Source: Staphylothermus marinus F1 | GTDB lineage: Archaea > Thermoproteota > Thermoprotei_A > Sulfolobales > Desulfurococcaceae | DNA length: 32,000 nucleotides | Reading direction: 5' to 3' | Assembly (NCBI RefSeq): GCF_000015945.1 | Contig: NC_009033.1 | Span: forward strand, 60,001 to 92,000 | Shown: positions 4,097 to 22,045 of the stretch, in pieces | Layout of the letters: each line of letters opens with the position of its first letter | How positions within the stretch are numbered: the stretch's first letter is position 1 | Notes under the pieces: model-generated | Seen by the model: only the letters and a program-made list of their open reading frames with translations | Told to the model about the DNA's origin: nothing | The model's database searches: none | Translations under genes and position numbers: made by a program

Positions 4097-4208
4097 TTGT
4101 AAATAATTACTATTATTACTGGAAGTGTTGATAGAGTTTTTTAAATTGTAGAGGAAAAAGCTACAGATATGTTTTCTTAATTGTTTCTACCTACCATAGT
4201 TTAATATA

Positions 4209-4416
4209 GTGGTTGCCCATGCTTTATTTTTGGATGCTATGGTTGTTTTGGTAGATTGGTTGGGTTCGCTTTATAAACCCCTACTAACATGTATGGTTAA
4301 TGGAATGCAGATGAAGGGCTCTATGTGGTCTATGTGGAGCCCCGATAGCCCCCTCCGTGAAGGGATGAAGCCCCGACCCAAGAGGGGGAAGCCCGTGCAT
4401 AGCATGGGCAACCACT
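4209..4416 (+). mobile_element. tnpB-less miniature element (MITE-like) of the IS family at 18557-19917, copy A
   Basis: Perfect 14-bp terminal inverted repeats: GTGGTTGCCCATGC (4209-4222) and GCATGGGCAACCAC (4403-4416). Contains a left-end-like TTTATTTTTGGATGCTATGGTTGTTTTGG. The GC-rich core at 4305-4416 is near-identical to the tnpB 3' end/right end at 19771-19917. The 75-aa ORF 4209-4436 is an artefact of reading this element. Confidence 0.75.
4270..4277 (+). promoter_or_regulatory. candidate archaeal TATA box inside miniature element A
   Basis: Palindromic TTTATAAA about 30 nt upstream of the conserved core start (4305). The same GGGTTC(G/A)CTTTATAAACCCCT block recurs in the copy at 21.8 kb (TATA at 21852-21859) but is absent from the full-length IS. 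Confidence 0.3.
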
Positions 4417-4691
4417 ATTCTCAACAACTATTCTAGCAAAATTATCTATTCTATAATGCCAGTAATCTGATTTTTCAATGAAATCGTCGAATAAGGTATC
4501 TAAATTATTATTTTTCTTTGATAAGGGTTTTTTATTCAACAATTAAACCTCATCACATTGTTTGTTTAGACAGGTAATTATGTGATCAAATAGATATTTA
4601 AGCGTTAGTCTAAAGTTATATTTTGTCTAATAATTTTATTTTACATAATGGAAAAACTATTAAATTGAAGAATTAATTTTTTAAAATACTG

Positions 4692-5663
4692 GTGATAGAC
4701 ATGATTACTAAGAAGCGAATACTTGCGATAATAATAGTCATAGTAGTAGTTGTAGGTAGTCTATATTATCTAGATGCCCAAGCATCTCTGAGGAAAAATA
4801 TCGTAAGATTAGTTGTTGGAGTAGAACTAAATGATCACTCTGCTGCATTCTGGGTTGCATTAGATAAAGGTTATTTTAGGGATTTGGGTTTGGATGTTGA
4901 ATATAAAACTTTCAGTACTGGATTAGAATTAGCTGTTGCTCTGAGTAGAGGAGATTTTGACATAGCACTTGCATGTATTGGTCCAGTGATGGTTATGTAT
5001 TCAAGAGGGGTCCCAGTTATTCTTGTTGCTATGACTCATTTAAACGGATACTCCATGATCATTGGTACTAAGATAAATAATATACATCAACTAAATGGAG
5101 CTAAGGCATCAGTTTCAGGTCCAGGCTCGCCTGTTTGGTTAATTGCACATATGTTCATGGAAAAATATAATGTTAGTTTTACCTTAGTCAAAATGCCTCC
5201 TTTCATAGCTGTTAATGCATTGCTAAACCACCAGGTTAGCATTAGTTTTTTACCTGAGCATTACGCCACTCTTGCCGTGAAACTGGGGGGTTTCAGGGCA
5301 TTGACGAATCAGGACTTATGGAAAAACATGCCTGGATCAGGTGTTTTTGTCAAGAAAGATTTTTTAAAGGATCACAGAGATCTTGTCGAGAAGTTTGTGT
5401 ATGCTATTTATAGAGCCATACTGTTTATTAAGAATAACCCGGAAGACGCCGCAATTATTGTTGCAAAACATTTAGCATCAACTACAGAAGTTATGGCTGA
5501 TTCTATGAAGTATTTAGATTATACTGTAGAAATAAATGTTTCAGCCATCCAATATTATTCTAAACTTCTACACAAGTATGGTGCTATAGATCATGAAATA
5601 AATGTCGACAATTTTATTGATATAAGCATTCTCGAGGATCTCGGGTTGATGCGTCATGGATAG
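4692..5663 (+). CDS. ABC transporter substrate-binding protein, NMT1/SsuA-like (NitT/TauT family)
   Basis: 323 aa. An N-terminal membrane anchor is followed by an NMT1/THI5-like binding-protein pattern. Overlaps the permease gene by 8 nt. ATG 4701 is a possible alternative start. Confidence 0.65.
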   Translation: MIDMITKKRILAIIIVIVVVVGSLYYLDAQASLRKNIVRLVVGVELNDHSAAFWVALDKGYFRDLGLDVEYKTFSTGLELAVALSRGDFDIALACIGPVMVMYSRGVPVILVAMTHLNGYSMIIGTKINNIHQLNGAKASVSGPGSPVWLIAHMFMEKYNVSFTLVKMPPFIAVNALLNHQVSISFLPEHYATLAVKLGGFRALTNQDLWKNMPGSGVFVKKDFLKDHRDLVEKFVYAIYRAILFIKNNPEDAAIIVAKHLASTTEVMADSMKYLDYTVEINVSAIQYYSKLLHKYGAIDHEINVDNFIDISILEDLGLMRHG

Positions 5664-6402
5664 GATGATCTACTATGTTTTTCTATCAATATTTTTTATC
5701 ATTACTATGTGGTATTTCTTAGCTTTTTATTCTCCAAAATATTTGTTTCCATATCCCCACACAGTATTTTATGCTTCTATAGATTTAATTACTAAAATGG
5801 ACCTATTAGAAAACTTATTGTATTCAACCATAAGAGTCGCCATAGGCTATGTTATTGGTGTGTTTTTAGGTATAGGATTGGGTGTTCTTATTTTGTTAAG
5901 CAGACTTATTCGGAGCTTATTATATCCGATTGTAACTTTTATTGTTATAACTCCTAGTTTTGCATTTATTCCATTACTCATGATATGGATAGGATTAAAT
6001 GATTGGCTAGCGATAACGGCGATTATAATTTGTACAGCGTTCCCTATAATATATGCTTTCATGAGTTCTCATAAATATATTGATCGCGAATTAATAGAAG
6101 CAGCTAGAATCTATGGAGCAACAGACACCTATATAGCAATACATATTATTCTTCCACTCTCAATAACACATTTAGCTACAATACTAAGATATGAAGCAGG
6201 GCATAGTTGGAGACTAGGATTTGTAACTGAATATATAGCATTAAGTAATGGTTTAGGAGCACTAATGATGTATGCTTATTCAACACTAAGAGTTGACGAA
6301 GTGATAGCCTTACTCATAATTATAGGGTTACTAACATATATTTTCCAGCAAACAATTACCCTTATAGAGAATAAGTTGCTGAAAAAATGGTATATAACGT
6401 GA
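5656..6402 (+). CDS. ABC transporter permease (NitT/TauT family)
   Basis: 248 aa, multi-TM, with the EAA loop EAARIYGATDTYIAIHIILPLS typical of binding-protein-dependent permeases. Confidence 0.8.
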   Translation: MDRMIYYVFLSIFFIITMWYFLAFYSPKYLFPYPHTVFYASIDLITKMDLLENLLYSTIRVAIGYVIGVFLGIGLGVLILLSRLIRSLLYPIVTFIVITPSFAFIPLLMIWIGLNDWLAITAIIICTAFPIIYAFMSSHKYIDRELIEAARIYGATDTYIAIHIILPLSITHLATILRYEAGHSWRLGFVTEYIALSNGLGALMMYAYSTLRVDEVIALLIIIGLLTYIFQQTITLIENKLLKKWYIT

Positions 6403-6709
6403 TGTCTTACCTATTTTCAACCGTAGACGGCGCTATTAATTGTTTCTGCTTGTAAAAACTTGGATGATTATTAATTCTATAAACAGATGCTTCAAATAAT
6501 CCCTAAGGAGTCTAACTTGGCAGATAGTGGGAGTGGGGGGAGTATTAGATATATAAGAGGTCGTCTCACTTGGTCTCAAAGTTATAGTAATTAGTATGGG
6601 TGTAGTCGGTATTTTGGATGCATTTATAGGAATGCTTATTTGATCCAGAATGAGTGTGTTATTTCCTTGTTCAATTAATATTGTCAAGTTTAAGCGAATA
6701 TTATTGGTT

Positions 6710-6901
6710 GTAGTTGTCTGTGCTTTATTTTTGGTTGTTTTGGATGTTATGGGTATTTGCAGGGGCTTCCCCCTTTTGGGTTGGGGCTTCATTCCTTCAT
6801 GGTGAGGGTTATTGGGGCTCCAAGGAGCAACTCTCACTCCTCGACCCCCACCAATAAAAAGAACACATAAACAACCATAATATCCAAACAAGCGAATAGT
6901 C
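6710..6901 (-). mobile_element. tnpB-less miniature element, copy B (internal-deletion derivative, most diverged)
   Basis: The reverse complement begins GACTATTCGCTTGTTTGGATATTATGGTT, which matches the IS left end at 18557. It keeps the tnpB SD and start (GGTGGGGGT..GTGAGAGTT). It then jumps directly to TGGAGCCCCAATAACCCTCACCATGAAGGAATGAAGCCCCAACCCAAAAGGGGGAAGCCCCTGC and a right-end inverted copy of the left end. Boundaries are +/-10 bp. Confidence 0.7.
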
Positions 6902-6982
6902 CCTATCCATGCTCGCTTTATAAGCTACTAAACATATATATTGGTTCAGATTAGGTTTAAGGGGCATAGAGGAGGATTTTAA

Positions 6983-8254
6983 TTGTTGCTTATCCATACA
7001 GCAGATCTTCATATTGGTGCTTTTAGCAATAGACCTCTTAGAAACGCTAATGTTGAAGCTTTCGAGAAAATTGCGGATTATACTATTGATAATAAGATTC
7101 CATACTTAGTTATTGCTGGAGATTTCTTTGAGAGACCTAGGATAGAGAATTTTGAGGTTCTTCGCAGAATATATAGGATTTTGAGAAGGTTAAAAGAGAA
7201 CAATATATATGTTGTAAGTATTCCTGGAAGCCATGATTCCTCGCCTAGGGGGGCAGATATACTTACATTACTTAATGAAGCAGGCTTAATACATGTTCCC
7301 ATGTATCAAATCGGTGAAAAACTTGTTTTATACCCTCTCAAGCTAGGAGACATTGTTTTCTACGCTATTCCTGGTCTTAAAAATAACTTGGAAACAATAT
7401 ATCTGCGTGATAGAAAAGTCGTGTTTAAGCAACTAGAAGGTAAGGTAGAGAATATAGTTGTTCTCGCTCATACTAGTGTTAAGTTTGCCGGTTATGATCC
7501 AAGCATTTATAGTTATAGATATGGTAAAGCAGTTATTGAAAACCAGAATATTTTATCTACTCTGCCGAGAAATACAAAATATTTGGCTCTAGGACACATT
7601 CATTTTCCTCTCCCATTATTTGATGAAGCCGTAACCAATATTGCTTATCCAGGAGCTCCTGTTGGTAGAGATGCCAGTGATCTTGAGGAAACGTATCTTC
7701 TACGTAAAAAACATAGTAGAGATAGAAGGTTTCTTCTAATCGATATCAGTGAAGAGAAAACCATTGCTAAAAGTATATGGGAACCGTTTAATATATATGT
7801 TGAGTACATTAAGGATTACTATAAAGGATTCAATGATACTGTTCAAGAGGTTAAAAAAGTCATAAAAGATTTACCGGTAGAAGGATATAATGCGTTAATA
7901 CTTGATATTGAAGGAATACCTTTAGATGATAGGAATAAGTTGATACATAAACTCAGAGAAATAGAGCAGCAAAAAAGGATACTGATACATTTGAAAATGA
8001 GAGGTTTTAGGAACACAAGTGAATTAGAGATTAGTTTTGAGGATATAGGAGATATAGAAGAAATTGAAAGGATAGCAGTTGAAGAATTCGCGAGAAAGCT
8101 CGGTATAAAAGCTTCTCCGCAGAAAATACTTGAGCTAATAAATATTTTGAGCAAGGAAAAATCACCCGATACCAATGAAACGGAGTTTTATGAATCACTA
8201 TTCAAAGAATTGAAACCAATCATGGAGGAGATCCTCGGTGTCAATAAGGATTAA
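6983..8254 (+). CDS. mre11: Mre11-type metallophosphoesterase nuclease
   Basis: 423 aa with calcineurin-like phosphoesterase motifs in order: IHTADLHIG (I), VIAGDFFE (II), PGSHDSSP (III), LAHTS (IV), LGHIHFP (V). TTG start at 6983 with GGAGG at 6971-6975. An AT-rich TATA-like run lies at 6934-6941. Confidence 0.8.
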   Translation: MLLIHTADLHIGAFSNRPLRNANVEAFEKIADYTIDNKIPYLVIAGDFFERPRIENFEVLRRIYRILRRLKENNIYVVSIPGSHDSSPRGADILTLLNEAGLIHVPMYQIGEKLVLYPLKLGDIVFYAIPGLKNNLETIYLRDRKVVFKQLEGKVENIVVLAHTSVKFAGYDPSIYSYRYGKAVIENQNILSTLPRNTKYLALGHIHFPLPLFDEAVTNIAYPGAPVGRDASDLEETYLLRKKHSRDRRFLLIDISEEKTIAKSIWEPFNIYVEYIKDYYKGFNDTVQEVKKVIKDLPVEGYNALILDIEGIPLDDRNKLIHKLREIEQQKRILIHLKMRGFRNTSELEISFEDIGDIEEIERIAVEEFARKLGIKASPQKILELINILSKEKSPDTNETEFYESLFKELKPIMEEILGVNKD

Positions 8255-9563
8255 CGATATTTATGATTTATTATCAAGCATAGTAGATGATCTTAGGCGC
8301 GACTTCATAGAGACGCAACAAGATCAATTGATTAGTCTCCGAAGAGAAGTTTTCCATAAATTCTATGCTGTTGAAAATATAAATAGGGATTCAGACAAAA
8401 TATCTGTTGCTTTTGTTGATGCAGGATTTAAACCCTACCAGCTAGATGTATCGATAATTATACCTATACAGATAAGTGGAATAATTAGAGATGAAAATGG
8501 AAAGCTTCATAAGATTAAAAATCTCTTAGATAAACCTGTAAATGATTTCCTTATACTGTATTCCAGTAGGAAGAGAAAAGATGATAGATATATTTTCACA
8601 ATTAAAATTAAATCCTTATATGATAATTCATTATTGTTTAATAAAAGAGAAGATGCTGAAGAAGTATCCAAAGAAATAAACAAATTATTGCTCAACATTA
8701 GTGGATCAACTCTTTTCGAGAACCCCAAATCTTTTATAAAGCTCACTAAGTATGTTGAGGGATTACTGGAGCTTGCATATGCATTGAAGCTATTGTTAAT
8801 GCTTGAAGAAAATGGCAGTATTGTACCAGCATATATTGTATTGGATGGAACACTTATTAAATGGTTTAGTATACCGCGCAGACCAGAAGGTGTGGATGGC
8901 TTAGATATATTATCTATAATTCTAGGCATCGATGCCGATGAGATCAAAAAATACTTGTTTAGAATAGTTGGTTTATCAAAAACATCAAAGTTTACAAACA
9001 TTATTCGTAGTCAGAGCTTATTCTACACCAAAAAGCCTAGCACAATTAATGGTAGAGGATTATATAGTCTAGTCGATTTAGAAGGCATAAATAATGCAGC
9101 AAAAATCCTTGGGGAGTATTGGAAGAGAGGAGGAAATAAGGATTTTGTTAGAGAAACCATACGTATTTTTAATAGGATAGTTTATAGTAATCATGAAGTA
9201 TATGTTGCAAGATTTCCACTGACACCGGATTATAGAAATGTGTTTATCCTGGATATTTATCTTGATAAGCCAATAATTGATCTAGGGAAGGGGGAAGTTG
9301 TATTAAACAAAGATAAGGCTTCTAGTGTTAATCCTTATATATCATATATTGTTAATACTATGATGCAGTATAGAACGAGAATAATAGGAGAGCCTCCTTA
9401 TGGTTATATGGAGATAGACAATATTGTTAGATTACGTGAAGATACCCGTAAATTCTTTGAACAAGCTCTTATCCGAGTACTTAGATCCCAAGACGATCTT
9501 GCTTCACGTATTCTCGAACAAGTTTTCTCTCCAACCACGCGTATGAGATATGGTTATAGGTGA
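8238..9563 (+). CDS. nurA: NurA-like 5'-3' nuclease
   Basis: 441 aa. The acidic-residue motifs VAFVDAGF and YIVLDGTLIKW match the NurA D...DGS(L) pattern. The C-terminal PPYGYMEIDNIVRL aligns with the NurA GYPxxLxxAH region, with ID in place of AH. GTG start with GGAGGA 8 nt upstream. Overlaps mre11 by 17 nt. Confidence 0.6.
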   Translation: MSIRINDIYDLLSSIVDDLRRDFIETQQDQLISLRREVFHKFYAVENINRDSDKISVAFVDAGFKPYQLDVSIIIPIQISGIIRDENGKLHKIKNLLDKPVNDFLILYSSRKRKDDRYIFTIKIKSLYDNSLLFNKREDAEEVSKEINKLLLNISGSTLFENPKSFIKLTKYVEGLLELAYALKLLLMLEENGSIVPAYIVLDGTLIKWFSIPRRPEGVDGLDILSIILGIDADEIKKYLFRIVGLSKTSKFTNIIRSQSLFYTKKPSTINGRGLYSLVDLEGINNAAKILGEYWKRGGNKDFVRETIRIFNRIVYSNHEVYVARFPLTPDYRNVFILDIYLDKPIIDLGKGEVVLNKDKASSVNPYISYIVNTMMQYRTRIIGEPPYGYMEIDNIVRLREDTRKFFEQALIRVLRSQDDLASRILEQVFSPTTRMRYGYR

Positions 9564-11575
9564 TATGTGTGTCTAAACCTATTGGTTTAATCTATTCTTG
9601 GAAAACTGATCACGTAGAAGTTGTTCTTACACGCGAAAATTATCGTCCAGGAATAGGAGACATCCTATATACAAAGCAAAATAATAGATATGTTCTGCTT
9701 CAAATAGTTGGATTCGAAGGAGAATTGCCGATCGGCAGTGGCTCCATAGTAAAGGATCTCGAGGAAGCACCGCCTATATATAGTGCAGAAACATCAATGT
9801 ACGCTAATGCATATTTATTCTTTGAAATAAGAAATATCAATAGCGAAAAACCTCTTGTTATAAAACCATATCAGCCACCGCCGCTTAATACACCAGTATA
9901 TGTTCTGCATCCCAAGGATCCCGAGTCTGAGAAAATAATGAACTTGCTAAGCAAAGGTATAACGGGTGAGGGAGAAACTGTTCCCATCGGTTGGTTGAGA
10001 AGCGGTATAGCCCCTGCTAAAGAGCTTAGAGAAGAAAAATACTTTACAAATGCTCCTTTAAACCTTGATCTATCATTATCTATACCTAAACACTTCCTAG
10101 TAGCGGGTCAAACAGGTGCTGGTAAAACAACAAGTGTAATGGGCATAATAATTCAGTGGGCAAGAAATAGTGGTAAGAATATTGCTTGGCTAATAATTGA
10201 TAGACATGGAGAATATAGTAAGACAGAAAACAATGGATTCGCGGACTTACTAGCTAAAGCATTATTTATGAATGATAAGTTAGAAGTGAAAGCAAAGATT
10301 TATGAGTTCACAGTTAATGAGGGAGAGAATAGAACAAAATCATTATCAAAAGATACCGTTGTTCTATTATCTGGAACAATGAATATTTCAAGTATAAGCG
10401 TCTATGATTTAGCAAACGTTCTAGACCTATCCCCAGATAAGATTAGCGATTTAGAAGAAACAATAGATATAATTGGAAGCCTCATCAAAGCATCAAAAAT
10501 AGATGATGCTTGGAAAAGAGTATTCCTAAACGAAAGAGACGAGCCTACAGGCCAGGTAATAGCACTTCTCCCAATACTTGTTGATAATGTATTTAGATAT
10601 GAAGGAATAGGTGAGCAGAAGAAGAAAGGTATTTATAGAGTATTATTAAATGCTGGAATAGATATTCGTAAACTAAGAACTTATAGACGCTTAATACTGG
10701 GAACACTCGGTCTCTCACGTAAAACAGCGATAGTTAGAGTAGGTGAGGCATCTAAGCCCGTTACAGTTATAAATGATAATTCATCGGTATTCAAGGTTTC
10801 ACCGCTACTTAAGGATCCATATAGTTTAATTATGATCATGAAAGCCATGGTTAATGCTGTGTCAGAAGTCTACAATATAAGAGAGAAAGGAGCATATCCA
10901 TGGCTAGGAATAAATGTTAAACCAGAAGTTACAGTTATTGAGTCAGGAACGTTTTCAATAGATAAAATTGTTGAAAACATAAACAATGGTGAAACAGTAA
11001 TACTTGATGTATCAAAAATACCTCTAGGCCAAGGAGACGTTATTGTTCAAAGCATTATTCGCAGATTATTCGAGTCCCGCATGGGTCTAGGAGTTGACAG
11101 GATCAAGGAGCTCCCGCCAATAGCTATTGTCTCCGAGGAAGCACCACTCTATTTAAGCCCTGATAAGGTTAGAAGTCCTTACAACGTGTTTGCAAGAATA
11201 GCTCGTGAAGGCAGAAAGTTCGGATTAGGGCTTATAGCAATTACACAGTTAGCAACACAAATTGAGAGACAAATACTTGCAAACTTTAATACTATCATAG
11301 CTTTGCGGACGAAATTTGTATCAGATATTAATTATTTCTCAAATATAGGAATACCTGGAGAAACACTTACAAGCTTAGGTGATCGTGAAGGATACCTTTA
11401 TACTCCGGACTTAAGAGTTAAAGAGCCTATACCAATATATATACCCGGCTATTTTGAGCTCGCAGAAGATCTAAGTAGAGAATATCTAGAAAAAATCAGG
11501 AACGTGAAGGAAACGGAAAAGAAAGCATTGACACAGATATTTAAAAACATAGAGGAAGAGGATGAAGATATATGA
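9560..11575 (+). CDS. herA: HerA/FtsK-type hexameric ATPase-helicase (enlarged)
   Basis: 671 aa with an N-terminal HAS-barrel-like segment. Motifs: Walker A GQTGAGKT (aa 183-190), IIDRHGEY, ILDVS, Walker B IAIVSEEA (aa ~521-528) and ARIAREGRKFGLGLIAITQ. GTGA overlap with nurA. GTG 9569 is an alternative start. Confidence 0.8.
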   Translation: MICVSKPIGLIYSWKTDHVEVVLTRENYRPGIGDILYTKQNNRYVLLQIVGFEGELPIGSGSIVKDLEEAPPIYSAETSMYANAYLFFEIRNINSEKPLVIKPYQPPPLNTPVYVLHPKDPESEKIMNLLSKGITGEGETVPIGWLRSGIAPAKELREEKYFTNAPLNLDLSLSIPKHFLVAGQTGAGKTTSVMGIIIQWARNSGKNIAWLIIDRHGEYSKTENNGFADLLAKALFMNDKLEVKAKIYEFTVNEGENRTKSLSKDTVVLLSGTMNISSISVYDLANVLDLSPDKISDLEETIDIIGSLIKASKIDDAWKRVFLNERDEPTGQVIALLPILVDNVFRYEGIGEQKKKGIYRVLLNAGIDIRKLRTYRRLILGTLGLSRKTAIVRVGEASKPVTVINDNSSVFKVSPLLKDPYSLIMIMKAMVNAVSEVYNIREKGAYPWLGINVKPEVTVIESGTFSIDKIVENINNGETVILDVSKIPLGQGDVIVQSIIRRLFESRMGLGVDRIKELPPIAIVSEEAPLYLSPDKVRSPYNVFARIAREGRKFGLGLIAITQLATQIERQILANFNTIIALRTKFVSDINYFSNIGIPGETLTSLGDREGYLYTPDLRVKEPIPIYIPGYFELAEDLSREYLEKIRNVKETEKKALTQIFKNIEEEDEDI

Positions 11576-14070
11576 TCATATTGGGGCTCAGACTGAAAAA
11601 CATTCGTAGCTACATAGATAAAACAATAGTATTTCCGCGGCAAGGCATTACAGTAATATATGGAGATGTGGGAACAGGTAAATCAACAATATTATCAAGT
11701 ATAGCATACGCATTATTTGGACAACCAAAATCTAAGATCCCTGATCCTATGGAGAGATATGCTTATCCTAAAGGCGAAGATCTCCTAAGAATAGGGACAA
11801 GAGAAGGATATGTTAGGCTATTAATACAGCAAAAGAATAGAATAATACTCGTTGAAAGAAGACTTATAAAGAGATCAGAGGGTAAAGTAAGTGATCCGGG
11901 CGGTAGATTAGTAGTATTCGAATATGTAGAAGAAAATGGTGAACAAAAACTAAAACTAATTCACGACAGATATTATTCCTCGGAGGAATTAAAGAGGAGA
12001 GTTCTGAAAGAATTAGGTATACCCGAGATAATTTCGAAGCAGAAACCACTAATATTCACAAATGCTATATATGTTCCTCAATTCAGTGTAAACGACATTA
12101 TTAACTTGGGAGACAATGAAAGAATATTATTAATAAATAAAGCATTGAATATTGACAAATACAATAATATAAAGACTAACTTAAGTAAGCTAACATCTCA
12201 AATCCTTAATAGTGAAATAAAAAACTTGAGAAATTATGAACAAAGACTTGAAAGCATACTTGGTAAAAATAGTATAGAAGAGCTAGAAAAGAAGATCAAG
12301 GAGGCTGAAAAAGAGATAAACAATATAAATATGGCAATTCAGCAAGTAGATGAATCTATTCGAAAGCTGGAAAACGAGATCAAGAACTACCAGCAACAAT
12401 ACGAGAAAAAACAGGAAGAACGCAACAATATAAAGCAGAAACTAGCAGTTATAAAGCATAGCTTAGAAGAACTACGAGCAAAAGAGGATAATATAAAACA
12501 GCTAACAAGTCTTCTCGGACTAAATGAACCAATACAACTAGATGTTTTATCATCGAAAATTAAGAGCCAACTAGAAGAAATAGATAAACAATTAAAGAAC
12601 ATTGATCAACGAAAACAAGAACTACAAAAGAAAATAGAAGAAAACAGACACTTATCAGAAACAATAAACGCAGAAATAAATAAGTACAGAGAAAAAATAG
12701 GAGAATTAAAAGCAAAAATTAACAGTAAAAACGAGATGTTATCTGAAAAACAAAAAGAACTTCTTGAAAAAGAAGAGTTATTGAAAAAAGGAATTTGTCC
12801 CCTCTGTAAACAAAAAATCGCACATGAACATGGCTATAAGTTAATTAATTCATTAAAGAACGAAATAGAGACGATTAAGAAGGAGATATTAGAGATTCAA
12901 CAGTTACTTAGAACGGCTCTTGAGGAATTGAAAAAGTATGAAGACAAAAACCTCGAAATTAATAATGAAATTAAACGCTTAGATGAACAATTAAGGATCA
13001 TTGATAAAGAAAGAGATAAGCTTATCAATGAAAAGATGGAATTGAACGATAAATTATCTAAGCTCACAGAAATAAAGCGTCTCTGTGACGAAATAGAGAA
13101 GTTGAAACAGAAAATAAGGGATAAAGATCTATTGGAGAAACAGTTAGTACATATAGAGACTTCTATTTCAGAGTTAAAGAAAATAATTGATGAAGAAACC
13201 AGAAAATATAAATTATTAATGAATAAGAAAACAGATCTAATTGGTAAAAGGGAAAAAGTGAAGGCTGAAATAGAATCTTATAAACAACAGATTCAACAGT
13301 TAAAAGAATATTATGAGGAGTACCAAAAAACTAAGGAGCAAAGAATGTTCCTAGAAAACATGAAGAAATTCCTATATGGCGAAAGAAATAGGAGAGGCTT
13401 ATTCTATGACTTAGTGGAGAAGGTTGAGGAAAGAGTTAGGAGCATAGCTTATGATAAGTTCCGTTCATTATTTATAAATTACTTCTTAAAGTTGATGGAG
13501 GATCATGAGATATTAGATGTTGACCTAGATGAGAAATTCAGCCCAGTTTTCCGAATAAAAACTAAGAGAATAATTGGCGAAATTACACAACCAAGCGGAG
13601 GTCAATTAACAAGTGTTAGCTTAGCTTATCGTTTAGCATTAAATGCTGTAGCTAGAAGTATGACTCCCCAGTTAAGAAATAGTACTTTAATACTTGATGA
13701 ACCAACTTATGGATTCAGTCCTGAAAGAGTTGAGAAACTTCGCGAACTTCTATATGAGATAAGCAATCGTGGTAAGAGACAAATAATCGTTGTAACACAT
13801 GATCGGAACCTATTAGATGTTGGTGATTGCAGAATAAAACTTGATATTAACAGGGAAAATAATGAAACAATAGTTAATTATGAAGAATGTAATAATTTAT
13901 CGAAAGAATACTATACATATATTGAAAACATTTTATCCAAAGGATACACATCAATACTGACCACTAGGGAAGCGGAGGAGAAAGAGGAAAAACTAGTAGG
14001 AGGATTTGAGCCAAAATTTAAAAGCAGGAAGGTGAGTAAGTCTAGAAGCATTTTCGACTTTCTGGCTTAG
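11572..14070 (+). CDS. rad50: Rad50-type SMC ATPase
   Basis: 832 aa. Walker A GDVGTGKST (aa 31-39), a long K/E-rich coiled coil and a central CPLC zinc hook at aa 409-412. Also signature SGGQLTSVSLAYRLAL, Walker B LILDEPT and VVTHD. ATGA overlap with herA. Confidence 0.85.
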   Translation: MIILGLRLKNIRSYIDKTIVFPRQGITVIYGDVGTGKSTILSSIAYALFGQPKSKIPDPMERYAYPKGEDLLRIGTREGYVRLLIQQKNRIILVERRLIKRSEGKVSDPGGRLVVFEYVEENGEQKLKLIHDRYYSSEELKRRVLKELGIPEIISKQKPLIFTNAIYVPQFSVNDIINLGDNERILLINKALNIDKYNNIKTNLSKLTSQILNSEIKNLRNYEQRLESILGKNSIEELEKKIKEAEKEINNINMAIQQVDESIRKLENEIKNYQQQYEKKQEERNNIKQKLAVIKHSLEELRAKEDNIKQLTSLLGLNEPIQLDVLSSKIKSQLEEIDKQLKNIDQRKQELQKKIEENRHLSETINAEINKYREKIGELKAKINSKNEMLSEKQKELLEKEELLKKGICPLCKQKIAHEHGYKLINSLKNEIETIKKEILEIQQLLRTALEELKKYEDKNLEINNEIKRLDEQLRIIDKERDKLINEKMELNDKLSKLTEIKRLCDEIEKLKQKIRDKDLLEKQLVHIETSISELKKIIDEETRKYKLLMNKKTDLIGKREKVKAEIESYKQQIQQLKEYYEEYQKTKEQRMFLENMKKFLYGERNRRGLFYDLVEKVEERVRSIAYDKFRSLFINYFLKLMEDHEILDVDLDEKFSPVFRIKTKRIIGEITQPSGGQLTSVSLAYRLALNAVARSMTPQLRNSTLILDEPTYGFSPERVEKLRELLYEISNRGKRQIIVVTHDRNLLDVGDCRIKLDINRENNETIVNYEECNNLSKEYYTYIENILSKGYTSILTTREAEEKEEKLVGGFEPKFKSRKVSKSRSIFDFLA

Positions 14071-14080
14071 TTGCTTTTCT

Positions 14081-14088
14081 TTTAAATA
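14081..14088 (+). promoter_or_regulatory. candidate TATA box for the 14110 gene (leaderless geometry); T-rich tract may also terminate the rad50 transcript
   Basis: TTTAAATA is centred about 25 nt upstream of ATG 14110. It is preceded by the T-runs CTTTTCTTTT directly after the rad50 stop. Confidence 0.3.
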
Positions 14089-14109
14089 TTTTTCCCGATA
14101 TTATAATGT

Positions 14110-15039: not shown

Positions 15040-15052
15040 AATATATGGTGAA

Positions 15053-16240: not shown

Positions 16241-16302
16241 AATAATATATGGTGTTTAAAAACCGTTATAAACAATGTATTAAGAATTATTCGTAGAGGT
16301 GC

Positions 16303-17007
16303 TTATTTATAGTTATTTATTAAATCCACTATTTGCGGGACTTTTACTAAACTATTTACTATATATGCTTTATTGTTTAATACGATGATCTCGCTTTCCA
16401 TCCCTCTTTTTAGTAGTGTTGCTCTTGCTCCGGCAATTAATGCTCCGGCGAAGTCGTTTATCAAGCTATCGCCTACATGCAGTATTTCATTGATCTTACA
16501 ATTTGCTTGATCTGCTAGTATCTCAAATACTTCTTTATCAGGTTTCTGAACACCTATCTCGTCGCCGAAGAGTGTTATATCAGCGTATTTTAGCAAGTTG
16601 TTCTGCTCTAGTATGATCCGTGTAGCCATTCCAGGCCAGAACAATACGTTTCCTAGAAAAGCTATTTTCAAGTTTCTTCTTTTTAATTCTATCAATGCTT
16701 TTTCGGAGTCAGGGAAGCTGATATTCTTTATTCTTTCATCAAGGATTGCTTGAACAGTTGCTTTAAATAAGTCATCAATGCTAATTCCCATTTTCTCGGC
16801 GAAAAACTTTGCTGAATCATAAATTGGTTTCTTAAACAATCCTTTAAGCCTAGCTTCTATAGCTTCATAATATGTGTTCATTAATTCTTTGTATACGTTC
16901 TCCAATGGTTTCCCTGTCAAGCTTGATAGCTTCTCAGATATTAACTGGTAGAATTTCGATGTATCCAGAAGAGTCTTCCATATATCGAATGATACAATTT
17001 TGATCAT
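16303..17007 (-). CDS. HAD-superfamily hydrolase (subfamily IA / haloacid-dehalogenase-type motif I)
   Basis: 234 aa. Motif I is FDIWKTLL (D-x-aromatic-x-T, as in type II HAD). Motif IV is HVGDSLINDFAGA. Confidence 0.7.
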   Translation of the reverse strand: MIKIVSFDIWKTLLDTSKFYQLISEKLSSLTGKPLENVYKELMNTYYEAIEARLKGLFKKPIYDSAKFFAEKMGISIDDLFKATVQAILDERIKNISFPDSEKALIELKRRNLKIAFLGNVLFWPGMATRIILEQNNLLKYADITLFGDEIGVQKPDKEVFEILADQANCKINEILHVGDSLINDFAGALIAGARATLLKRGMESEIIVLNNKAYIVNSLVKVPQIVDLINNYK

Positions 17008-17132
17008 TTTTCCTCGCTCTCCAGAATGATCATTATCTTAATTATATATCTTCTTTATTGGATTTTATTGGTTATCTAAAACAATTTAATTAATCTCGCG
17101 TTAATAGTTAAATGATATGGGGCGTATAGGTT

Positions 17133-18299
17133 TTGGCTAATGAATTATTGATACTTATCGACTTAGCCATAGTTATTTTCATGGCCAAGGTATTGGAGGA
17201 GATAATGGCTCGTATAGGTCAGCCCCCTATATTAGGAGATCTTTTGGCTGGTATAATTGTCGGTCCCAGTATTTTAGGATTAATCACTGTTACTCATAAT
17301 GTAGAGGTTATTGGATGGTTAGGCATAGTTATCCTAATATTTCTCGCCGGATTAGAAACTGATATCGAAGCTGCTAAGAAATATGGTTTTGACGCCGTAC
17401 TAGTTGCTTTGGGCGGAGTAGCTTTAACTTTTATCCTAGCCTTCATTATTGCTATGTTTTTCAATTATAGTTTTATAACATCATTATTTATAGCAACAAT
17501 TCTCACACCCACAAGTGTTAGCGTTACAAGTATGACTCTACTTGAACTAGGAGTTATACGTTCACGTGTTGGAGAAATTATTTTAGGTGCAGCATTTGCG
17601 GACGACGTAATAGCTATGATACTTTTCGCGTTAATATCCAGTATTGCTTTCTATGGTGAAATAAGACATGAATCAATAACAATGATTACTATAGGGTTAG
17701 CACTTATCTTCACATTGTTCCTAGTCTTCTATTATTCTTCAAATAAGCTGTTTAACCGTTTTATAATGCGTTCAAGACTTGTTGATGCCCCTATAATACA
17801 CTTATTAATGATTGGTATTGGAATGTCTATTATATCAGCTTATTTCGGATTATCTCCTCTCATAGGAGCTTATCTAGGAGGATTAGCTATGAGTAGAGTG
17901 GTTAAAAGTGCTCGGACAATGGAGTTTTTCGAGATACTTGTACAAATAATTTCTCCCTTCTTCTTCGTATATGCTGGTATATTGTTAAATCCATGGATTG
18001 TGATCGGTAAGATCAATTTATTAGAGACAATAGGTGTTATAATTGCAATAGTCGCTTCTGGAATAATCGGTAAAATACTGGGTTGTGGAGGGACAGCTTA
18101 TCTATTAAGGATGGATAAGAAATCATCTCTAACCATAGGTGTCGGCATGATGCCTAGAGCGGGTGTTGATCTCGTAATAGCCGTTGTAGGATTAACCATC
18201 GGGGTTCTAACAATGGAGCTATACTTATCAGCCCTTATACTAATCTACGTAACAAGTCTTTCAACACCGTTTCTCCTCAAAAAACATTTTTCAAAATAA
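17133..18299 (+). CDS. cation:proton antiporter (CPA2 / Kef-NapA type)
   Basis: 388 aa, polytopic (about 11-12 TM). The N-terminal IGQPPILGDLLAGIIVGPSILG and GLETD motifs are typical of the Na+/H+ exchanger family. Confidence 0.8.
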   Translation: MANELLILIDLAIVIFMAKVLEEIMARIGQPPILGDLLAGIIVGPSILGLITVTHNVEVIGWLGIVILIFLAGLETDIEAAKKYGFDAVLVALGGVALTFILAFIIAMFFNYSFITSLFIATILTPTSVSVTSMTLLELGVIRSRVGEIILGAAFADDVIAMILFALISSIAFYGEIRHESITMITIGLALIFTLFLVFYYSSNKLFNRFIMRSRLVDAPIIHLLMIGIGMSIISAYFGLSPLIGAYLGGLAMSRVVKSARTMEFFEILVQIISPFFFVYAGILLNPWIVIGKINLLETIGVIIAIVASGIIGKILGCGGTAYLLRMDKKSSLTIGVGMMPRAGVDLVIAVVGLTIGVLTMELYLSALILIYVTSLSTPFLLKKHFSK

Positions 18300-18319
18300 G
18301 CTGTTTGAGGAGGAAAATT

Positions 18320-18556
18320 ATGGCGAAACTATTAATTCTAAGAGCATTCTTTGAGACAAGCAATGGAGGCTACTATTCACCATTAAATAGAGAATGCTAT
18401 ACATTATTACCAATACCAGAAGATCTAAGCAAACTTGGCAAAACACCGCCTCACTTACATCCGGAGAAAATAATTGATCAATGTACTGGTGAAAAACTTT
18501 CAAAGTTTTATCCAATAGAACACAATAATAATCCCATAAACAATGATCCCAGGCTA
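18320..18556 (+). pseudogene. 5' fragment of a small gene interrupted by the IS (79 codons)
   Basis: ATG 18320 is preceded by GAGGAGG. The ORF reads MAKLLILRAFFETSNGG...NNDPRL and then runs into the IS left end. The matching 3' fragment lies at 19918-20088. Confidence 0.6.
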
Positions 18557-18684
18557 GACTATTCGCTTATTTGGATACTATGGTTATTTTTGGAAATTAT
18601 GAAAACTATTGTTGTTTTGTAGTGTTTATATTTATGTGTTCTCTTTGTATATTCTTATGTAATATTTTATGGTGGGGGTTGGGG

Positions 18685-19902
18685 GTGAGGGTTTATGCAA
18701 CCGTTAAGGTTATGGGGGTTGCTCCTGATCCCAGCCTCCACCACAAACTCTATTTATTTCTTAGATCATATCGTGACTGGACACAGTACATTATAGACCA
18801 GATATGGTCTTATAATAGAATCCCATCTATGAAGAATCTACATGATAGATTCTATATGTTGTTGAGGAGCAGGGGGTTCCGTGCACATCACTGCCACAAA
18901 ATTGAACGTAGAGCTAAAGAAATTGTTAAATCCGTTAAGAAGAATAGGAGTAGAAAACCAGTATTGAGAAAATTAACTGCTAGAATAGACTATGAAGATT
19001 ATAGATTGGACTTGAAGAGTAAAACATTAAAGATAGCTGTACTAGATAATGAATGGGTTATAGTGAAGCTGAAATGGTATAGTTATATAAACAAGTATCT
19101 TAATAGTGATTGGAATCTTAAGGAAATACTTGTATCTTTTAGAAACAATAATATATGGGTTTATTTGGTTTTCGAAAAACAAGTTGTTTTCAGGAAGCCT
19201 AGGACATTAATGGGTGTAGACATTAATTTCGATAATATAACATATACCATTCTAGACAGGAACGGTAAACTAGTAACAATGGGTACTATTCCATTCAAAG
19301 GTTTACGTAAAGCACTGCATTATAAGAAGCTTGCTGAGAAATTGCAGAAGAGATATCCTAGGAATTGGAGATTTGTTAAATGGGTTAGAATGGTTAGAGC
19401 TAGGTTGAGGAGAGCCAGAAATATTCTTAAAGACACCTCACACTACATAGCCAAGAAAATTGTAGAAATAGCTAATGAACATAACTCAGTAATAGTATTG
19501 GAGGATCTAGAGAATATTAAGAAAAACAATAAAAGTAAAATGTTTAATTGGAGAATGCATTTATGGGCGTATCGTAGAGTGCAGGAGTACATTTATTATA
19601 AAGCGTTGATTAGAAATATGTTAACGGTATTTATTGACCCAAAATACAGCTCTAAGAAGTCTCCTATAGGTGGTAGATTAATTTTCATAAACTATAAATA
19701 CGTCAAACTACCCAACGGCTTTATTGTTACTCGCGACATTGTTGCTTCGTGGAACCTAGCACTCAAATATCTGCGGATGAAGGGCTCTATGTGGTCTGTG
19801 TGGAGCCCCGATAGCCCCCTCCGTGAAGGGATGAAAACCCGACACAAGAGGGGGAAGCCCGTGCAAACAATTCCCAAAATAACCATAGTTTCTAAAAGAT
19901 AA
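18685..19902 (+). CDS. tnpB: TnpB-like RuvC nuclease (OrfB), with a cysteine-less zinc-finger region
   Basis: RuvC-I is MGVDINFD, RuvC-II is VIVLEDLENIK and RuvC-III is TRDIVASWNLA. The probable start is GTG 18685, after GGTGGGGG. The upstream part of the ORF-track frame (18571-18684) is left-end sequence. The segment between RuvC-II and RuvC-III (IDPKYSSKKSPIGG...KLPNGF) contains no Cys. Confidence 0.8.
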   Translation: MRVYATVKVMGVAPDPSLHHKLYLFLRSYRDWTQYIIDQIWSYNRIPSMKNLHDRFYMLLRSRGFRAHHCHKIERRAKEIVKSVKKNRSRKPVLRKLTARIDYEDYRLDLKSKTLKIAVLDNEWVIVKLKWYSYINKYLNSDWNLKEILVSFRNNNIWVYLVFEKQVVFRKPRTLMGVDINFDNITYTILDRNGKLVTMGTIPFKGLRKALHYKKLAEKLQKRYPRNWRFVKWVRMVRARLRRARNILKDTSHYIAKKIVEIANEHNSVIVLEDLENIKKNNKSKMFNWRMHLWAYRRVQEYIYYKALIRNMLTVFIDPKYSSKKSPIGGRLIFINYKYVKLPNGFIVTRDIVASWNLALKYLRMKGSMWSVWSPDSPLREGMKTRHKRGKPVQTIPKITIVSKR

Positions 19903-19917
19903 TGCCCGGGCAACCAC
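19771..19917 (+). ncRNA. candidate TnpB guide-RNA (omega/reRNA) scaffold overlapping the tnpB 3' end and right end
   Basis: The GC-rich core is shared with the three tnpB-less copies. Hand-derived stems are GGGCTC-N15-GAGCCC, CCCCCTC...GAGGGGG, GGG-N7-CCC and a terminal GCCCGTGC/GCCCGGGC. The position matches where TnpB systems encode their RNA. Confidence 0.4.
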
Positions 19918-20088
19918 TCTAAGCGTTACTGGAGAATAACGTGTGAGGGAGGAGATAAAATATTCCTATACTATCTAGATCCTCTTCTATTATTAGAGGA
20001 GAACATTGATAAGGTTAAGAATAAGCTTCTAATAGAATATGCTCCCGGCTTATCCATTATACCTGTGGTTAACTTATTGCTTATATAA
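19918..20088 (+). pseudogene. 3' fragment of the IS-interrupted small gene (56 aa + stop)
   Basis: An open frame reads SKRYWRITCEGGDKIFLYYLDPLLLLEENIDKVKNKLLIEYAPGLSIIPVVNLLLI* immediately after the IS right end. It is in phase with 18320-18556 once 18557-19917 is removed. Confidence 0.55.
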
Positions 20089-20138
20089 TAAAGAAAAAAT
20101 GTTATTGAGACATTTATGTAAGCATTGATGTATTATTT

Positions 20139-21689
20139 TTAGAGTAGATATCTCCACACGCCTCTTCCACGATAACTATAAACTATTGTTTTCCACGCTG
20201 TTACTTCTTCTATACTATACCCTATTCCTTCTCTTCCTATTCCTGAATCTTTTCTGCCTCCAAATGGATAGTATCCTATTCCGTGTCTTGGATACTCATT
20301 GATATATATGGCTCCTACCTCTAGGAATCTTATTAGTTTTCTGATTTTATTGATATCCTTACCAAATATTGCTGCGTCCAAACCGTATCTTCTCTTATTA
20401 GCGATTTCTATTGCTTCATCCACGTTCTCAATAGGCGTTATCAATGCTACTGGTGCGAATACTTCGTCAACGAATAGTTTTGTCTTAAACAGCTTGCTTT
20501 TATCTGTTAACTCTATCAATGTAGGCTCCATATATGTATCGCCAAGTCTTTTTCCGCCAAACAGTATTTTTCCTCCCTTATTCACGGCGTCCTCTATAGC
20601 TTTCATTGCGTTGTCAACAGCATATTTTGTTATTAATGGTCCAACACTATATGCTGGGCAACGAGGATCGCCTACCTTATATTTTCCAAGCTCTTCTACG
20701 AGTTTATTCTTGAACTCTTCATAGATTGGTTTTTCAACTAGTATAAGCTTTATTGCATCACATCTCTGTCCAGCATAGCTTGTAATTCCTACTGCGATAT
20801 TTCCCGCTGCATGCTCGATATCTGCATCGCTAAGTACTATTGCTGGGTCTCCTCCTCCAAGTTCTAATACATACTTCTTTATTCCACCAGTTCTCATCAC
20901 TTCTAATCCTGTCTCTGTACTACCGGTGAAGCTTATTGCTCCTATTCTTCTATCCGGCAGTATTTCTTTCATTTCTGACCCTTTAATGGTTAATAGAGCG
21001 AATGCTTCTTTAGGAAATCCTGCTTCCTCGAGTAGTTTAACGAATAAGATGACGGGTATTGGGTCAAGTGATGAAGGCTTTAATAAGACAGCGTTTCCAG
21101 CTACAAAGCTATATGTAAACTTATTAACTGTGTCGAAGAGAGGATAATTGAAAGGTGTAATCGCTAAAACTATTCCATAGGGTTCTTTACGCACTATCCC
21201 TTCGGACTCTAAGGTTAACTGGCTCCAATCACCAGGTATATATTCTCCTATAAGCCTTCTAAGATCCATTTTAGCCTTACGGAGTCTCTCAATAGATGCA
21301 TTTACTTCTCCTCTTGCCTGCGAATATGTCTTACCACTGTCGATAACCAATGCTTCTACGATATCGTCTCGGTGATGAGATAATAGATCGGCAAGTCTTT
21401 CTAATAGATCAAGCCTTCGATCACCCGGAGTATCACGGACAGCCCATCTACCTTTATTATACATTACATCAATAGTTTTATGAACAAGCTCGAGTGAAGG
21501 CTTACTGACAAGGGCTATTAATGATCCATCAATTGGTGAGTGAACCTCTAAATAATCACCGCTATCTATCCATTGACCATTAATGAATGTTTTGAAAACC
21601 AGAACTCCATCCTTGCGGACACTATATATATCTCTAAATAGACTGTCTTTAAAGTCTAGAATAACACGATCCATATTGATACGCCCCAT
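20139..21689 (-). CDS. gapN: non-phosphorylating glyceraldehyde-3-phosphate dehydrogenase (ALDH superfamily, GAPN)
   Basis: ALDH catalytic motifs LELGGGDPAIVL and SYAGQRCDAIKL. Also ITPFNYPLFDTVNK, FTGSTETG and the C-terminal RHGIGYYPFGGRKDSGIGREGIGY...VWRY, which closely follow my recollection of archaeal GAPN. The start is taken as ATG 21689 (ATG 21674 is an alternative). The ORF-track extension to 21722 reads into the miniature element. Confidence 0.85.
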   Translation of the reverse strand: MGRINMDRVILDFKDSLFRDIYSVRKDGVLVFKTFINGQWIDSGDYLEVHSPIDGSLIALVSKPSLELVHKTIDVMYNKGRWAVRDTPGDRRLDLLERLADLLSHHRDDIVEALVIDSGKTYSQARGEVNASIERLRKAKMDLRRLIGEYIPGDWSQLTLESEGIVRKEPYGIVLAITPFNYPLFDTVNKFTYSFVAGNAVLLKPSSLDPIPVILFVKLLEEAGFPKEAFALLTIKGSEMKEILPDRRIGAISFTGSTETGLEVMRTGGIKKYVLELGGGDPAIVLSDADIEHAAGNIAVGITSYAGQRCDAIKLILVEKPIYEEFKNKLVEELGKYKVGDPRCPAYSVGPLITKYAVDNAMKAIEDAVNKGGKILFGGKRLGDTYMEPTLIELTDKSKLFKTKLFVDEVFAPVALITPIENVDEAIEIANKRRYGLDAAIFGKDINKIRKLIRFLEVGAIYINEYPRHGIGYYPFGGRKDSGIGREGIGYSIEEVTAWKTIVYSYRGRGVWRYLL

Positions 21690-21696
21690 GGAAGTG

Positions 21697-21933
21697 GTGG
21701 TTGCCCGTGCTTTATGATGCACGGGCTTCCCCCTCTTGGGTCAGGGCTTCATCCTTTCATCGAGGGGGCTATCGGGGCTCCACACCGACCACTTGAAGCC
21801 CTTCATCTGCATTTCTTTTTAAATCATGTATGTTATAAGGGGTTTATAAAGTGAACCCAACAACTATCCCTCAAAACAATTATAGCTTCCACAATTTCCA
21901 AAATAACCATAGTATCTAAATAAGAGAATAGTC
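21697..21933 (-). mobile_element. tnpB-less miniature element, copy E
   Basis: The reverse complement begins GACTATTCTCTTATTTAGATACTATGGTTATTTTGGAAATT, which is the left end. It contains GGGTTCACTTTATAAACCCC (TATA at 21852-21859) and the GC-rich core (21697-21812). It ends in the hairpin GCCCGTGC-ATCATAAA-GCACGGGC plus AACCAC. There is an in-frame TGA in the former TnpB tail frame. Confidence 0.75.
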
Positions 21934-22045
21934 TAATAATATTTATTCAATATTACTCCTAATAAATATGTAGTTATATGAATAACAGAAATTATAGAAT
22001 CTATGATAATACTACGTGAAAAATAAATGTATCCTAGAAAAGCGA

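Follow-up and report, generated by a model that had tools for sequence, protein, structure and literature searches.

INTRODUCTION

The guide RNAs of insertion sequences (ISs) of the IS200/IS605 family, such as ISDra2, known as omega RNAs or right-end RNAs (reRNAs), originate in the 3′ part of tnpB together with the right end (RE) of the element and take their guide from the flanking DNA. The transposon-associated motif (TAM) of these systems is the target motif of the transposon, and in characterized TnpB systems it is of the TTGAT type. Archaeal tnpB 3′-end RNAs have been reported as sense overlapping transcripts (sotRNAs) (PMC4615843), and a homing mechanism has been shown for bacterial IS605 elements (PMC10055086). 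Short derivatives of such ISs, the palindrome-associated transposable elements (PATEs), have also been described: the HqIRS PATEs of Haloquadratum walsbyi arose from IS1341-type elements by core deletion, some with C-terminal tnpB remnants (PMC3119063), and PATE-like elements of Geobacillus stearothermophilus “often encode omega RNAs,” for which Meers et al. proposed the use of TnpB in trans (PMC10055086). Here, we analyzed a 32,000-nt window of the Staphylothermus marinus F1 chromosome (NC_009033.1, positions 60,001 to 92,000 of the forward strand; all coordinates below are positions in this window), in which one IS carrying tnpB (copy C) and three tnpB-less loci (A, B, and D) share a GC-rich module. 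We consider it probable, at roughly 0.68, that C is a tnpB-only IS200/IS605 element with an omega RNA scaffold, that A and D are PATE-like nonautonomous derivatives whose omega RNA is used in trans, and that B is a decaying derivative. Given the published PATE/omega RNA and sotRNA precedents, the concept is already known and no new principle is introduced here.

The elements of the window resemble PATEs in their short gene-less form, in ends that match those of a tnpB-bearing IS of the same genome, in their origin by core deletion, in the lack of target duplication, in insertion beside a short target motif, and in the presumed use of TnpB in trans; C-terminal tnpB remnants are found both in them and in HqIRS71. 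They differ by their hyperthermophilic Thermoprotei host, by a TnpB clade without zinc-finger cysteines, and by the promoter-like box that A and D keep directly before the scaffold. Moreover, PATEs lack terminal inverted repeats by definition, whereas the left end (LE) and RE show inverted similarity here, and A has a perfect 18-nt repeat. With the omega RNA/reRNA systems and sotRNAs, the module shares the place of origin, a presumptive guide taken from the flank, and a TAM equal to the transposon target motif; unlike them, it has no sequence or Rfam match, its scaffold of three helices is short (~110 to 150 nt), the RNA is predicted from sequence, and the TAM appears to be RGAC instead of the TTGAT type. 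MITEs (miniature inverted-repeat transposable elements) are likewise short, noncoding, multicopy IS derivatives, and A has terminal inverted repeats. However, the MITE label was rejected because the target-site duplication of MITEs is absent at D and C; in addition, insertion here is oriented, 3′ of a fixed motif, and the parent, from what is visible, is no DDE transposon. Exapted TnpB homologues such as TldR are nuclease-dead proteins with a fixed guide RNA encoded beside the protein. Their guide RNA is separate from transposition and directed at a site in the host, as an exaptation of the elements described here would imply; in the present case, by contrast, the TnpB retains its RuvC residues, and the predicted orphan RNAs are found in the context of mobile elements.

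RESULTS AND DISCUSSION

A three-helix guide RNA scaffold is predicted at the 3′ end of tnpB

A repeat search and blastn within the window recovered four copies of the module, 82 to 95% identical to one another, essentially where an earlier note on this DNA had placed them (Table 1). In the repeat search, A (4306 to 4399) was 95% identical to C (19772 to 19865) over 94 nt and 89% identical to D (21717 to 21818, inverted) over 102 nt; C and D shared 85% identity, and B (6758 to 6822) shared 82 to 86% with A, C, and D over 65 nt. The ends given in the earlier note were roughly right, except that A stops at 4415 and not 4416 and that B spans 6710 to 6898 and not only 6759 to 6832. With a covariance model built from metagenomic relatives, the scores were 94 bits for C, 59 for D, 58 for A, and 50 for B (E ≤ 2e-10 in each case), and no fifth copy was found in the window by this model or by blastn. 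The 63-nt core (4336 to 4398) has 69.8% G+C compared with 35.7% for the whole window, in agreement with the described core of about 70% G+C in an AT-rich window. The full IS, two predicted guide-RNA-only derivatives that are intact, and one decaying derivative all lie inside 18 kb of the window.

For comparison, 80 metagenomic loci encoding TnpB relatives were gathered from hot springs and hydrothermal vents. Among 73 nonredundant tnpB 3′ tails, conservation reached GCACGGGCAACCAC in the S. marinus group and in a first subfamily (sub1) or CCTCGGGGAAACCC in a second subfamily (sub2) and then stopped, right after the conserved GGGCAACCAC or GGGGAAACCC, respectively, at the end of the RE, with unrelated flanks beyond. 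In copy C, the module overlaps tnpB codons ~362 to 405. It occupies the position of a TnpB omega RNA/reRNA scaffold, as had been proposed, comprising the last ~45 codons plus the RE and ending where the flanks diverge.

RNAalifold gave three helices (H1 to H3) in the module of the relatives. In a first set of 36 sequences, aligned by MAFFT without reference to structure, 94.5% of the cells were paired, compared with 36 to 52% when the partners were slid, and 43 double-change cells were counted versus 12 in shuffles, none of 500 shuffles being as high. The second set (35 sequences) gave 95.8% paired cells and 58 double-change cells versus 16 in shuffles (0/500). Here, five of the seven H2 pairs covaried, with H2 present in the versions CCCCCGC/GCGGGGG, CCCCGTG/CACGGGG, CCCTGCA/TGCAGGG, and CCCCGCA/TGCGGGG. 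The terminal hairpin H3 (GCCCGTGC...GCAYGGGC), a fourth structural element that had been overlooked in the earlier note, covaries between the subfamilies (GCCCGTGC/GCACGGGC versus CCCCGAGG/CCTCGGGG), and its loop ranges from 3 to ~55 nt (A, 3 nt; D, 8 nt; C, 39 nt). In sub2, the H1 loop GGGUU and an AACCC in H2, which are candidate pseudoknot partners, are both nearly invariant. The earlier note had read the module as a structured RNA instead of a protein-level repeat and had named covariation as the check; carried out on these two independent sets of relatives, the check gave strong support in both.

Within the window, the stems named previously were all recovered at their positions. In A, these are H1 (GGGCTC/GAGCCC, 4316 to 4321/4337 to 4342), the outer stem of H2 (CCCCCTC/GAGGGGG, 4349 to 4355/4382 to 4388), and the inner stem GGG/CCC (4362 to 4364/4372 to 4374). 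The inner stem becomes AGG/CCT in D, a change that had been noted correctly in a copy labeled E, which is D. The minimum free energy (MFE) fold of scaffold A has all three hairpins (z = −3.0), and that of scaffold C has a z score of −2.7. All scaffold pairs are kept in A and D, and B is degraded. A search of Rfam 15 gave no match at gathering scores and chance matches only at E ≤ 10. Overall, we predict that the module, ~110 to 150 nt long and with three strongly covarying helices across 70 metagenomic relatives, is the omega RNA scaffold of the TnpB-bearing IS.

A natural empty site reveals the ends of element D and a candidate target motif

The gene adjoining D encodes GAPN, an aldehyde dehydrogenase according to Pfam (Aldedh) and the names of its homologues. 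A GAPN orthologue with 93% identity is present on Logan contigs L201 and L202 in the same TreT-GAPN synteny. By blastn, positions 26000 to 21931 of the window correspond to L201 1943 to 5993 and positions 21698 to 20131 to L201 5992 to 7560, both at 88.5% identity, and D is exactly missing from the TreT-GAPN intergenic region of both contigs. With slashes marking the junctions, the sequence of the empty site is ..AATAATTATTTTTAGAC/CACTTCTATGGGGTG (short form, ..TTTTTAGAC/CACTTCTATGGGG), and that of the occupied site is ..AATAAATATTATTAGAC/TATTCTC...GGGCAACCAC/CACTTCCATGGGGCG (short form, ..TATTAGAC/TATTC...CAACCAC/CACTTCCATGGGG). The junction is ambiguous by 2 nt only, and there is no target duplication. 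The covariance model detected no module copy or remnant in L201 to L206. The precise absence of D from the relative, a presence/absence polymorphism and as such evidence of mobility, indicates a discrete insertion, that is, a nonautonomous transposon derivative.

The empty site of D also places the start of the LE at TATTC. In the family alignment, TATT is preceded by (A/G)GAC in 27 of 28 left ends, the remaining one having GAT; together with the empty site, this points to (A/G)GAC, outside the element, as the target motif and hence the TAM. In the empty site, AGAC is followed by CACTTCTATGGGGTGTATC, and the flank of D reads CACTTCCATGGGGCGTATC. In the relative without D, the presumptive guide of D thus directly adjoins AGAC, which is the layout required for TnpB homing; the 20-nt guide length used throughout is an assumption from known TnpB systems. 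A search of the window for a second target of the four presumptive guides gave chance-level partial matches only. Empty sites for A and B were not obtained from the nearest relatives with the ABC-transporter genes, which are 74% identical and whose intergenic DNA is not alignable.

Comparison of copy C with L201 confirmed the right boundary alone, the left flank not being syntenic in the relative, and showed no target duplication. The two tips of C and D differ (TATTC.. versus ..CAACCAC). Synteny with L201 is kept on the RE side and broken exactly at the IS (18400 to 18559 versus L201 7617 onward), beyond which the window has a Na+/H+ exchanger gene and the relative an NTP-transferase gene; this break suggests an IS-associated rearrangement. 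Across the family, the motif in front of the LE changes in step with the final bases of the RE, AGAC going with ..CCAC in the S. marinus group and sub1 and AGCC (as deduced) with ..ACCC in sub2; a single enzyme that reads the two cleavage sites would be expected to give such a pattern. We also observed that the subterminal LE of C (18570 to 18595, ..GGATACTATGGTTATTTTTGGAA) and its RE H3 loop (19871 to 19896, TTCCCAAAATAACCATAGTTTC..) are 88% complementary over 26 nt on the same strand. This is unusual for IS200/IS605, and in the relatives the relation reappears as weak minus-strand matches just upstream of tnpB.

The TnpB protein belongs by homology to a clade without zinc-finger cysteines

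The protein encoded at 18685 to 19902, 100% identical to WP_052833768 of S. marinus, is assigned to the TnpB family by homology. It matched Pfam PF07282 (E 4e-7) and, among the NCBIfam models, TIGR01766 (58.9 bits, above the cut-off of 32) and guided_TnpB (94.7 bits, just under the cut-off of 100), and a PDB profile search recovered TnpB 9nzp (E 5e-13) as well as Cas12f. In an alignment of 32 homologues (52 to 87% identity), no variation was seen at the presumed RuvC residues D179 and E273, and D351 showed at least 90% conservation; these residues were assigned by their position in the motifs GVDINF, VLEDL, and TRD, and not from a structure. The last RuvC Asp is also replaced in two clade members, P0066 and P0083 (SRHH). 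The CCCC zinc finger of the TNB domain was not found in the window protein, which has no cysteines in ..PKYSSKKSPIGGRLIFINYKYVKLPNGFIVTRD.., and in the same alignment the zinc-finger cysteines are absent across the whole clade, with the RuvC D/E/D retained. The clade consensus where the finger would be is ..TSKTSPIGGKLxFINYRWVKLPNGxIxTRD...

A homologue search with a threshold of E ≤ 1e-5 returned 656 matches, the majority from metagenomes of hot springs and vents. The S. marinus F1 genome encodes at least four members of this clade (ABN69196, ABN69868, ABN70245, and ABN70632); therefore, the single TnpB of the earlier note applies to the window only. Exact database look-ups of the S. marinus TnpB paralogues, GAPN, and TreT returned no record. 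In one relative (L126), a second, distant TnpB (12009 to 13244) lies ~800 nt downstream of the first IS; it has ~31% identity, and its CxxC zinc finger is intact.

The tnpB-less elements are candidate nonautonomous derivatives

The left-end sequence in the orphans had also been overlooked, and the proposal that they are free-standing RNA genes did not hold, since D and B keep the IS left end and A and D share a deletion junction. Positions 21895 to 21935 of D are 90% identical to 18555 to 18595 of the IS, and positions 6866 to 6901 of B are 89% identical to 18557 to 18592; D and B thus have both ends homologous to the IS (LE 88 to 90%, RE present). All three elements (A, 207 bp; D, 234 bp; B, 189 bp) are too short for a transposase gene and contain no intact gene, and tblastn found tail remnants of TnpB only. 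A and D have in common the deletion junction ..ATGCAGATGAAGGGC and a 49-nt segment with CGCTTTATAAACCCC, the TATA-like box standing at the same distance from the scaffold in both. One deletion junction at two loci implies that the short form itself multiplied. D has a counterpart of the CGCTTTATAAACCCC box of A, as do relatives upstream of tnpB, and this box, which resembles an archaeal transcription factor B recognition element (BRE) and TATA box, may act as a promoter.

Element B has another layout, the LE and the tnpB start region (GGTGGGGGTCGAGGAGTGAGAG, 6831 to 6852) being fused to the middle of the module (the H2-H3 part). It lacks the 5′ arm of H1, has three mismatches in H3 and the degenerate RE tip AGACAACTAC, and its fold (z = −0.5) is no better than shuffles. 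B appears to be a second, independently deleted derivative that is decaying. Element A keeps internal LE sequence, and in place of the canonical TATTCGC, its left tip (GTGGTTGCCCATGC) is the RE tip in inverted form: positions 4205 to 4223 are the perfect reverse complement of 4401 to 4418, forming the 18-nt terminal inverted repeat. Recombination between inverted copies and insertion beside a solo RE are candidate origins of this tip. TA on both sides was seen at A only and, in AT-rich DNA, is not informative.

TABLE 1 Coordinates of the elements, modules, predicted scaffolds, and presumptive guides in the S. marinus F1 window
Feature	Position	Strand	Remarks
Full IS (copy C)	18560-19917	+	tnpB-only; IS200/IS605 family, IS1341-type organization
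Target/TAM-like motif of C (AGAC)	18556-18559	+	Directly 5′ of the LE
LE of C	18560-18684	+	Start from the family alignment and the empty site of D
tnpB	18685-19902	+	405 aa; divergent TnpB without zinc-finger cysteines
RE of C, end	19917	+	Homology with relative L201 stops exactly at 19917/19918
Module copy C	19771-19917	+	At the tnpB 3′ end and RE
Predicted scaffold C	H1 19782-19808; H2 19815-19854; H3 19857-19911	+	Tail AACCAC, 19912-19917
Presumptive guide of C	19918-19937	+	TCTAAGCGTTACTGGAGAAT; first flank bases past the conserved RE end
Element A	4209-4415	+	207 bp; tnpB-less, intact scaffold; 82% identical to D over 198 nt
BRE/TATA-like box of A	4270-4277	+	TTTATAAA inside CGCTTTATAAACCCC; ~40 nt upstream of H1
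Module copy A	4305-4415	+	tnpB-less
Predicted scaffold A	H1 4316-4342; H2 4349-4388; H3 4391-4409	+	Inner stem of H2, 4362-4374; tail, 4410-4415
Presumptive guide of A	4416-4435	+	TATTCTCAACAACTATTCTA; flank directly after the RE
Element B	6710-6898	−	189 bp; decayed; apparently independent deletion; GGAC at 6899-6902
Module copy B, core	6758-6840	−	tnpB-less
Element D	21697-21930	−	234 bp; tnpB-less; LE, TATA-like box (21843-21850), scaffold (21697-21812), RE
AGAC beside D	21931-21934	−	On the strand of the element
Module copy D	21697-21812	−	tnpB-less
Presumptive guide of D	21677-21696	−	CACTTCCATGGGGCGTATCA; overlaps the upstream in-frame ATG of GAPN (21687-21689)

Two further observations concern the surroundings of A and B. 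L207, a contig of a public short-read assembly that is identical to S. marinus (window 4345 to 6898), breaks inside A and at the last base of the LE of B, consistent with A and B being multicopy genomic repeats. In addition, TCGCTTTATAAGCTACTAAACATATATAT (6913 to 6941, + strand), just outside the left end of B, is similar to the promoter-like stretch in A (72% over 29 nt) and to the promoter box that relatives have at tnpB, and it lies ~50 nt upstream of a Metallophos gene (6983). It may simply be the strong promoter consensus of the organism.

Based on these features, we propose the following sequence of events. The GC-rich module at the 3′ end of C would be the omega RNA scaffold, with its three helices ending 6 nt before the RE, so that the RNA would run into the flanking DNA, which would become the guide. 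A single internal deletion would have removed tnpB and kept the left-end region with the promoter-like box, the scaffold, and the RE; the short A/D-type element would then have multiplied, and B would derive from a second, separate deletion. A and D would be transcribed from the retained box, and their RNAs would be bound in trans by the TnpB of full copies, at least four of which are encoded in the genome. After excision, the complex would cut the empty site (AGAC plus guide match), and recombination would restore the element, as in the homing of bacterial IS605 elements. Programming of TnpB in trans by tnpB-less copies fits the anatomy of these loci.

Alternative readings of the tnpB-less copies

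The tnpB-less copies could instead be inert deletion remnants of a dead IS whose structure looks conserved because they are young, which we regard as unlikely. B is clearly decaying, A has no canonical LE tip, and IS605-type core deletions are frequent in Haloquadratum (PMC3119063). Searches by nhmmer and the covariance model also recovered tnpB-less copies beside relatives; they recur in this lineage, which speaks for the PATE-like reading, and two of them would fit inert remnants. One orphan (L186, 16806 to 16961) is 5′ truncated and identical by eye to a neighboring IS end, and another (L149, 3303 to 3426) lies beside apparent frameshifted tnpB remnants that were read by eye and for which tblastn gave no TnpB similarity. 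L130 carries two tnpB-less modules (1603 to 1756 and 6432 to 6590) of a more distant scaffold type with the same three-helix layout. The orphan of L185, a hot-spring relative (2853 to 3014), has a full scaffold, in which H2 is of a separate type and pairs completely (CCCGGGC/GCCCGGG), and CTTATAAACCCC upstream, and no LE-like sequence was found within 360 nt upstream of it. A loose-pattern scan of genome contigs (GGAGCCCCN{30,50}GGGGGAAGCCC) gave chance matches in GC-rich bacteria only.

Against inert remnants stands the comparison of A with D, whose modules are 10% diverged. Of 10 differing aligned positions, 6 are unpaired, 2 keep a wobble pair within stems, and 2 form the compensatory change from GGG/CCC to AGG/CCT. 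None of the 24 scored pairs is broken (P = 0.011 to 0.038 under random substitution), which, for A and D, agrees with the earlier statement that the substitutions fall in loops or are compensatory. The equal spacing of the TATA-like box in A and D, the multiplication of the short form evident from the one junction at two loci, and the exact transposon boundaries of D likewise argue against dead debris and for PATE-like derivatives.

A second alternative, which we hold to be improbable, is a takeover by the host: D may supply a promoter and a TnpB-binding 5′ leader to GAPN, and A and the L185 orphan may be immobile, promoter-equipped genes for fixed guide or regulatory RNAs acting in trans. D sits upstream of GAPN, 7 nt from its upstream in-frame ATG, and points into the gene, as does its TATA-like box; the H3 loop of D (ATCATAAAG) is ~23 to 31 nt upstream of that ATG. 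The relative has an AT-rich box (TTAATTAAATAATTA) 17 to 32 nt upstream of its GAPN start codon, and in S. marinus the 234-bp D lies between this box and the gene. The lack of an LE, the CTTATAAACCCC sequence, and the fully paired H2 of the L185 orphan would also fit. However, all of this is an argument from position. AT-rich, TATA-like strings are common in this genome (CTTTATAA occurs 8 times versus 4.6 expected), a second target of the guides was not found in the window, and promoter donation is compatible with elements that stay selfish.

The conserved hairpins might also be single-stranded DNA signals for a transposase, at the transposon end only, and not RNA. Subterminal DNA hairpins at IS200/IS605 ends are recognized by TnpA (PMC10055086), H3, at a distance of 6 nt from the RE tip, could serve as such a hairpin, and covariation alone cannot separate RNA from single-stranded DNA. 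Nevertheless, H1 and H2 sit 60 to 135 nt inside the transposon end, in tnpB coding sequence, and matching hairpins are not present as a set at the LE. This position, deep in a poorly conserved coding part, is explained by an omega RNA scaffold, whose known forms it matches, and not by a transposase end hairpin. G-U pairs are also frequent in the module (16/36 at pair 24/52 and 32/36 at pair 34/43 in set 1), indicating a fold specific to the tnpB-sense strand. A DNA signal is thus very improbable. The last candidate, a small peptide corresponding to the C-terminal tail of TnpB, for which A offers an ATG-initiated 44-codon open reading frame (ORF) in the former TnpB frame (4304 to 4438), has a negligible probability and was rejected because D has an in-frame TGA after 23 codons (..ERMKP and stop, as already seen in the earlier note); B has no 5′ part, and the tail is the least conserved protein part of TnpB in relatives, where its nucleotides covary.

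Several points weigh against our preferred interpretation of A and D as PATE-like derivatives served in trans by TnpB. A, without a canonical LE tip, may be immobile. The upheld pairing in A and D is suggestive, coming from a small sample of only 10 substitutions, and the compensatory changes could predate the loss of tnpB. A and D have also lost the RE loop that, in the full IS, is complementary to the LE. Neither in the window nor beside any of the relatives was a Y1 transposase (TnpA) seen. Finally, the clade lacks the zinc-finger cysteines of characterized TnpBs, and its nuclease role is a prediction.

The locus provides an archaeal example of a modular TnpB system in which element boundaries, the RGAC motif, and one guide/target pair are readable from a natural empty site. 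It also defines an uncurated omega RNA family with three helices and strong covariation, tied to a TnpB clade widespread in hot springs and vents, and offers starting points for trans-loading of TnpB and for thermostable genome-editing scaffolds. If some orphans were fixed guide RNA genes, the TnpBs of the cell would receive fixed chromosomal addresses, a step toward CRISPR- or TldR-like domestication in archaea. If promoter capture were true, D would have cut GAPN, a glycolytic gene, from its ancestral promoter and replaced it.

A small ORF is conserved inside the IS of relatives

An additional feature was observed in the IS of many relatives. A 48-aa ORF, oriented divergently, is conserved between the left end and tnpB in L126 (9730 to 10000, minus strand) and 47 other loci, corresponding to ~60% of the relatives, with the consensus MSxVYVFEAxIVKYxGxRYVIYPPKEYQEKLxKxHGRKVKVIVVIESE. 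It is absent from the S. marinus copy C, and searches found no match among PDB sequences and none of significance in Pfam. By analogy, the product may be a small regulator with a role comparable to that of the Arc protein that a preprint (10.64898/2026.09.24.754181) reports for IS605 elements.

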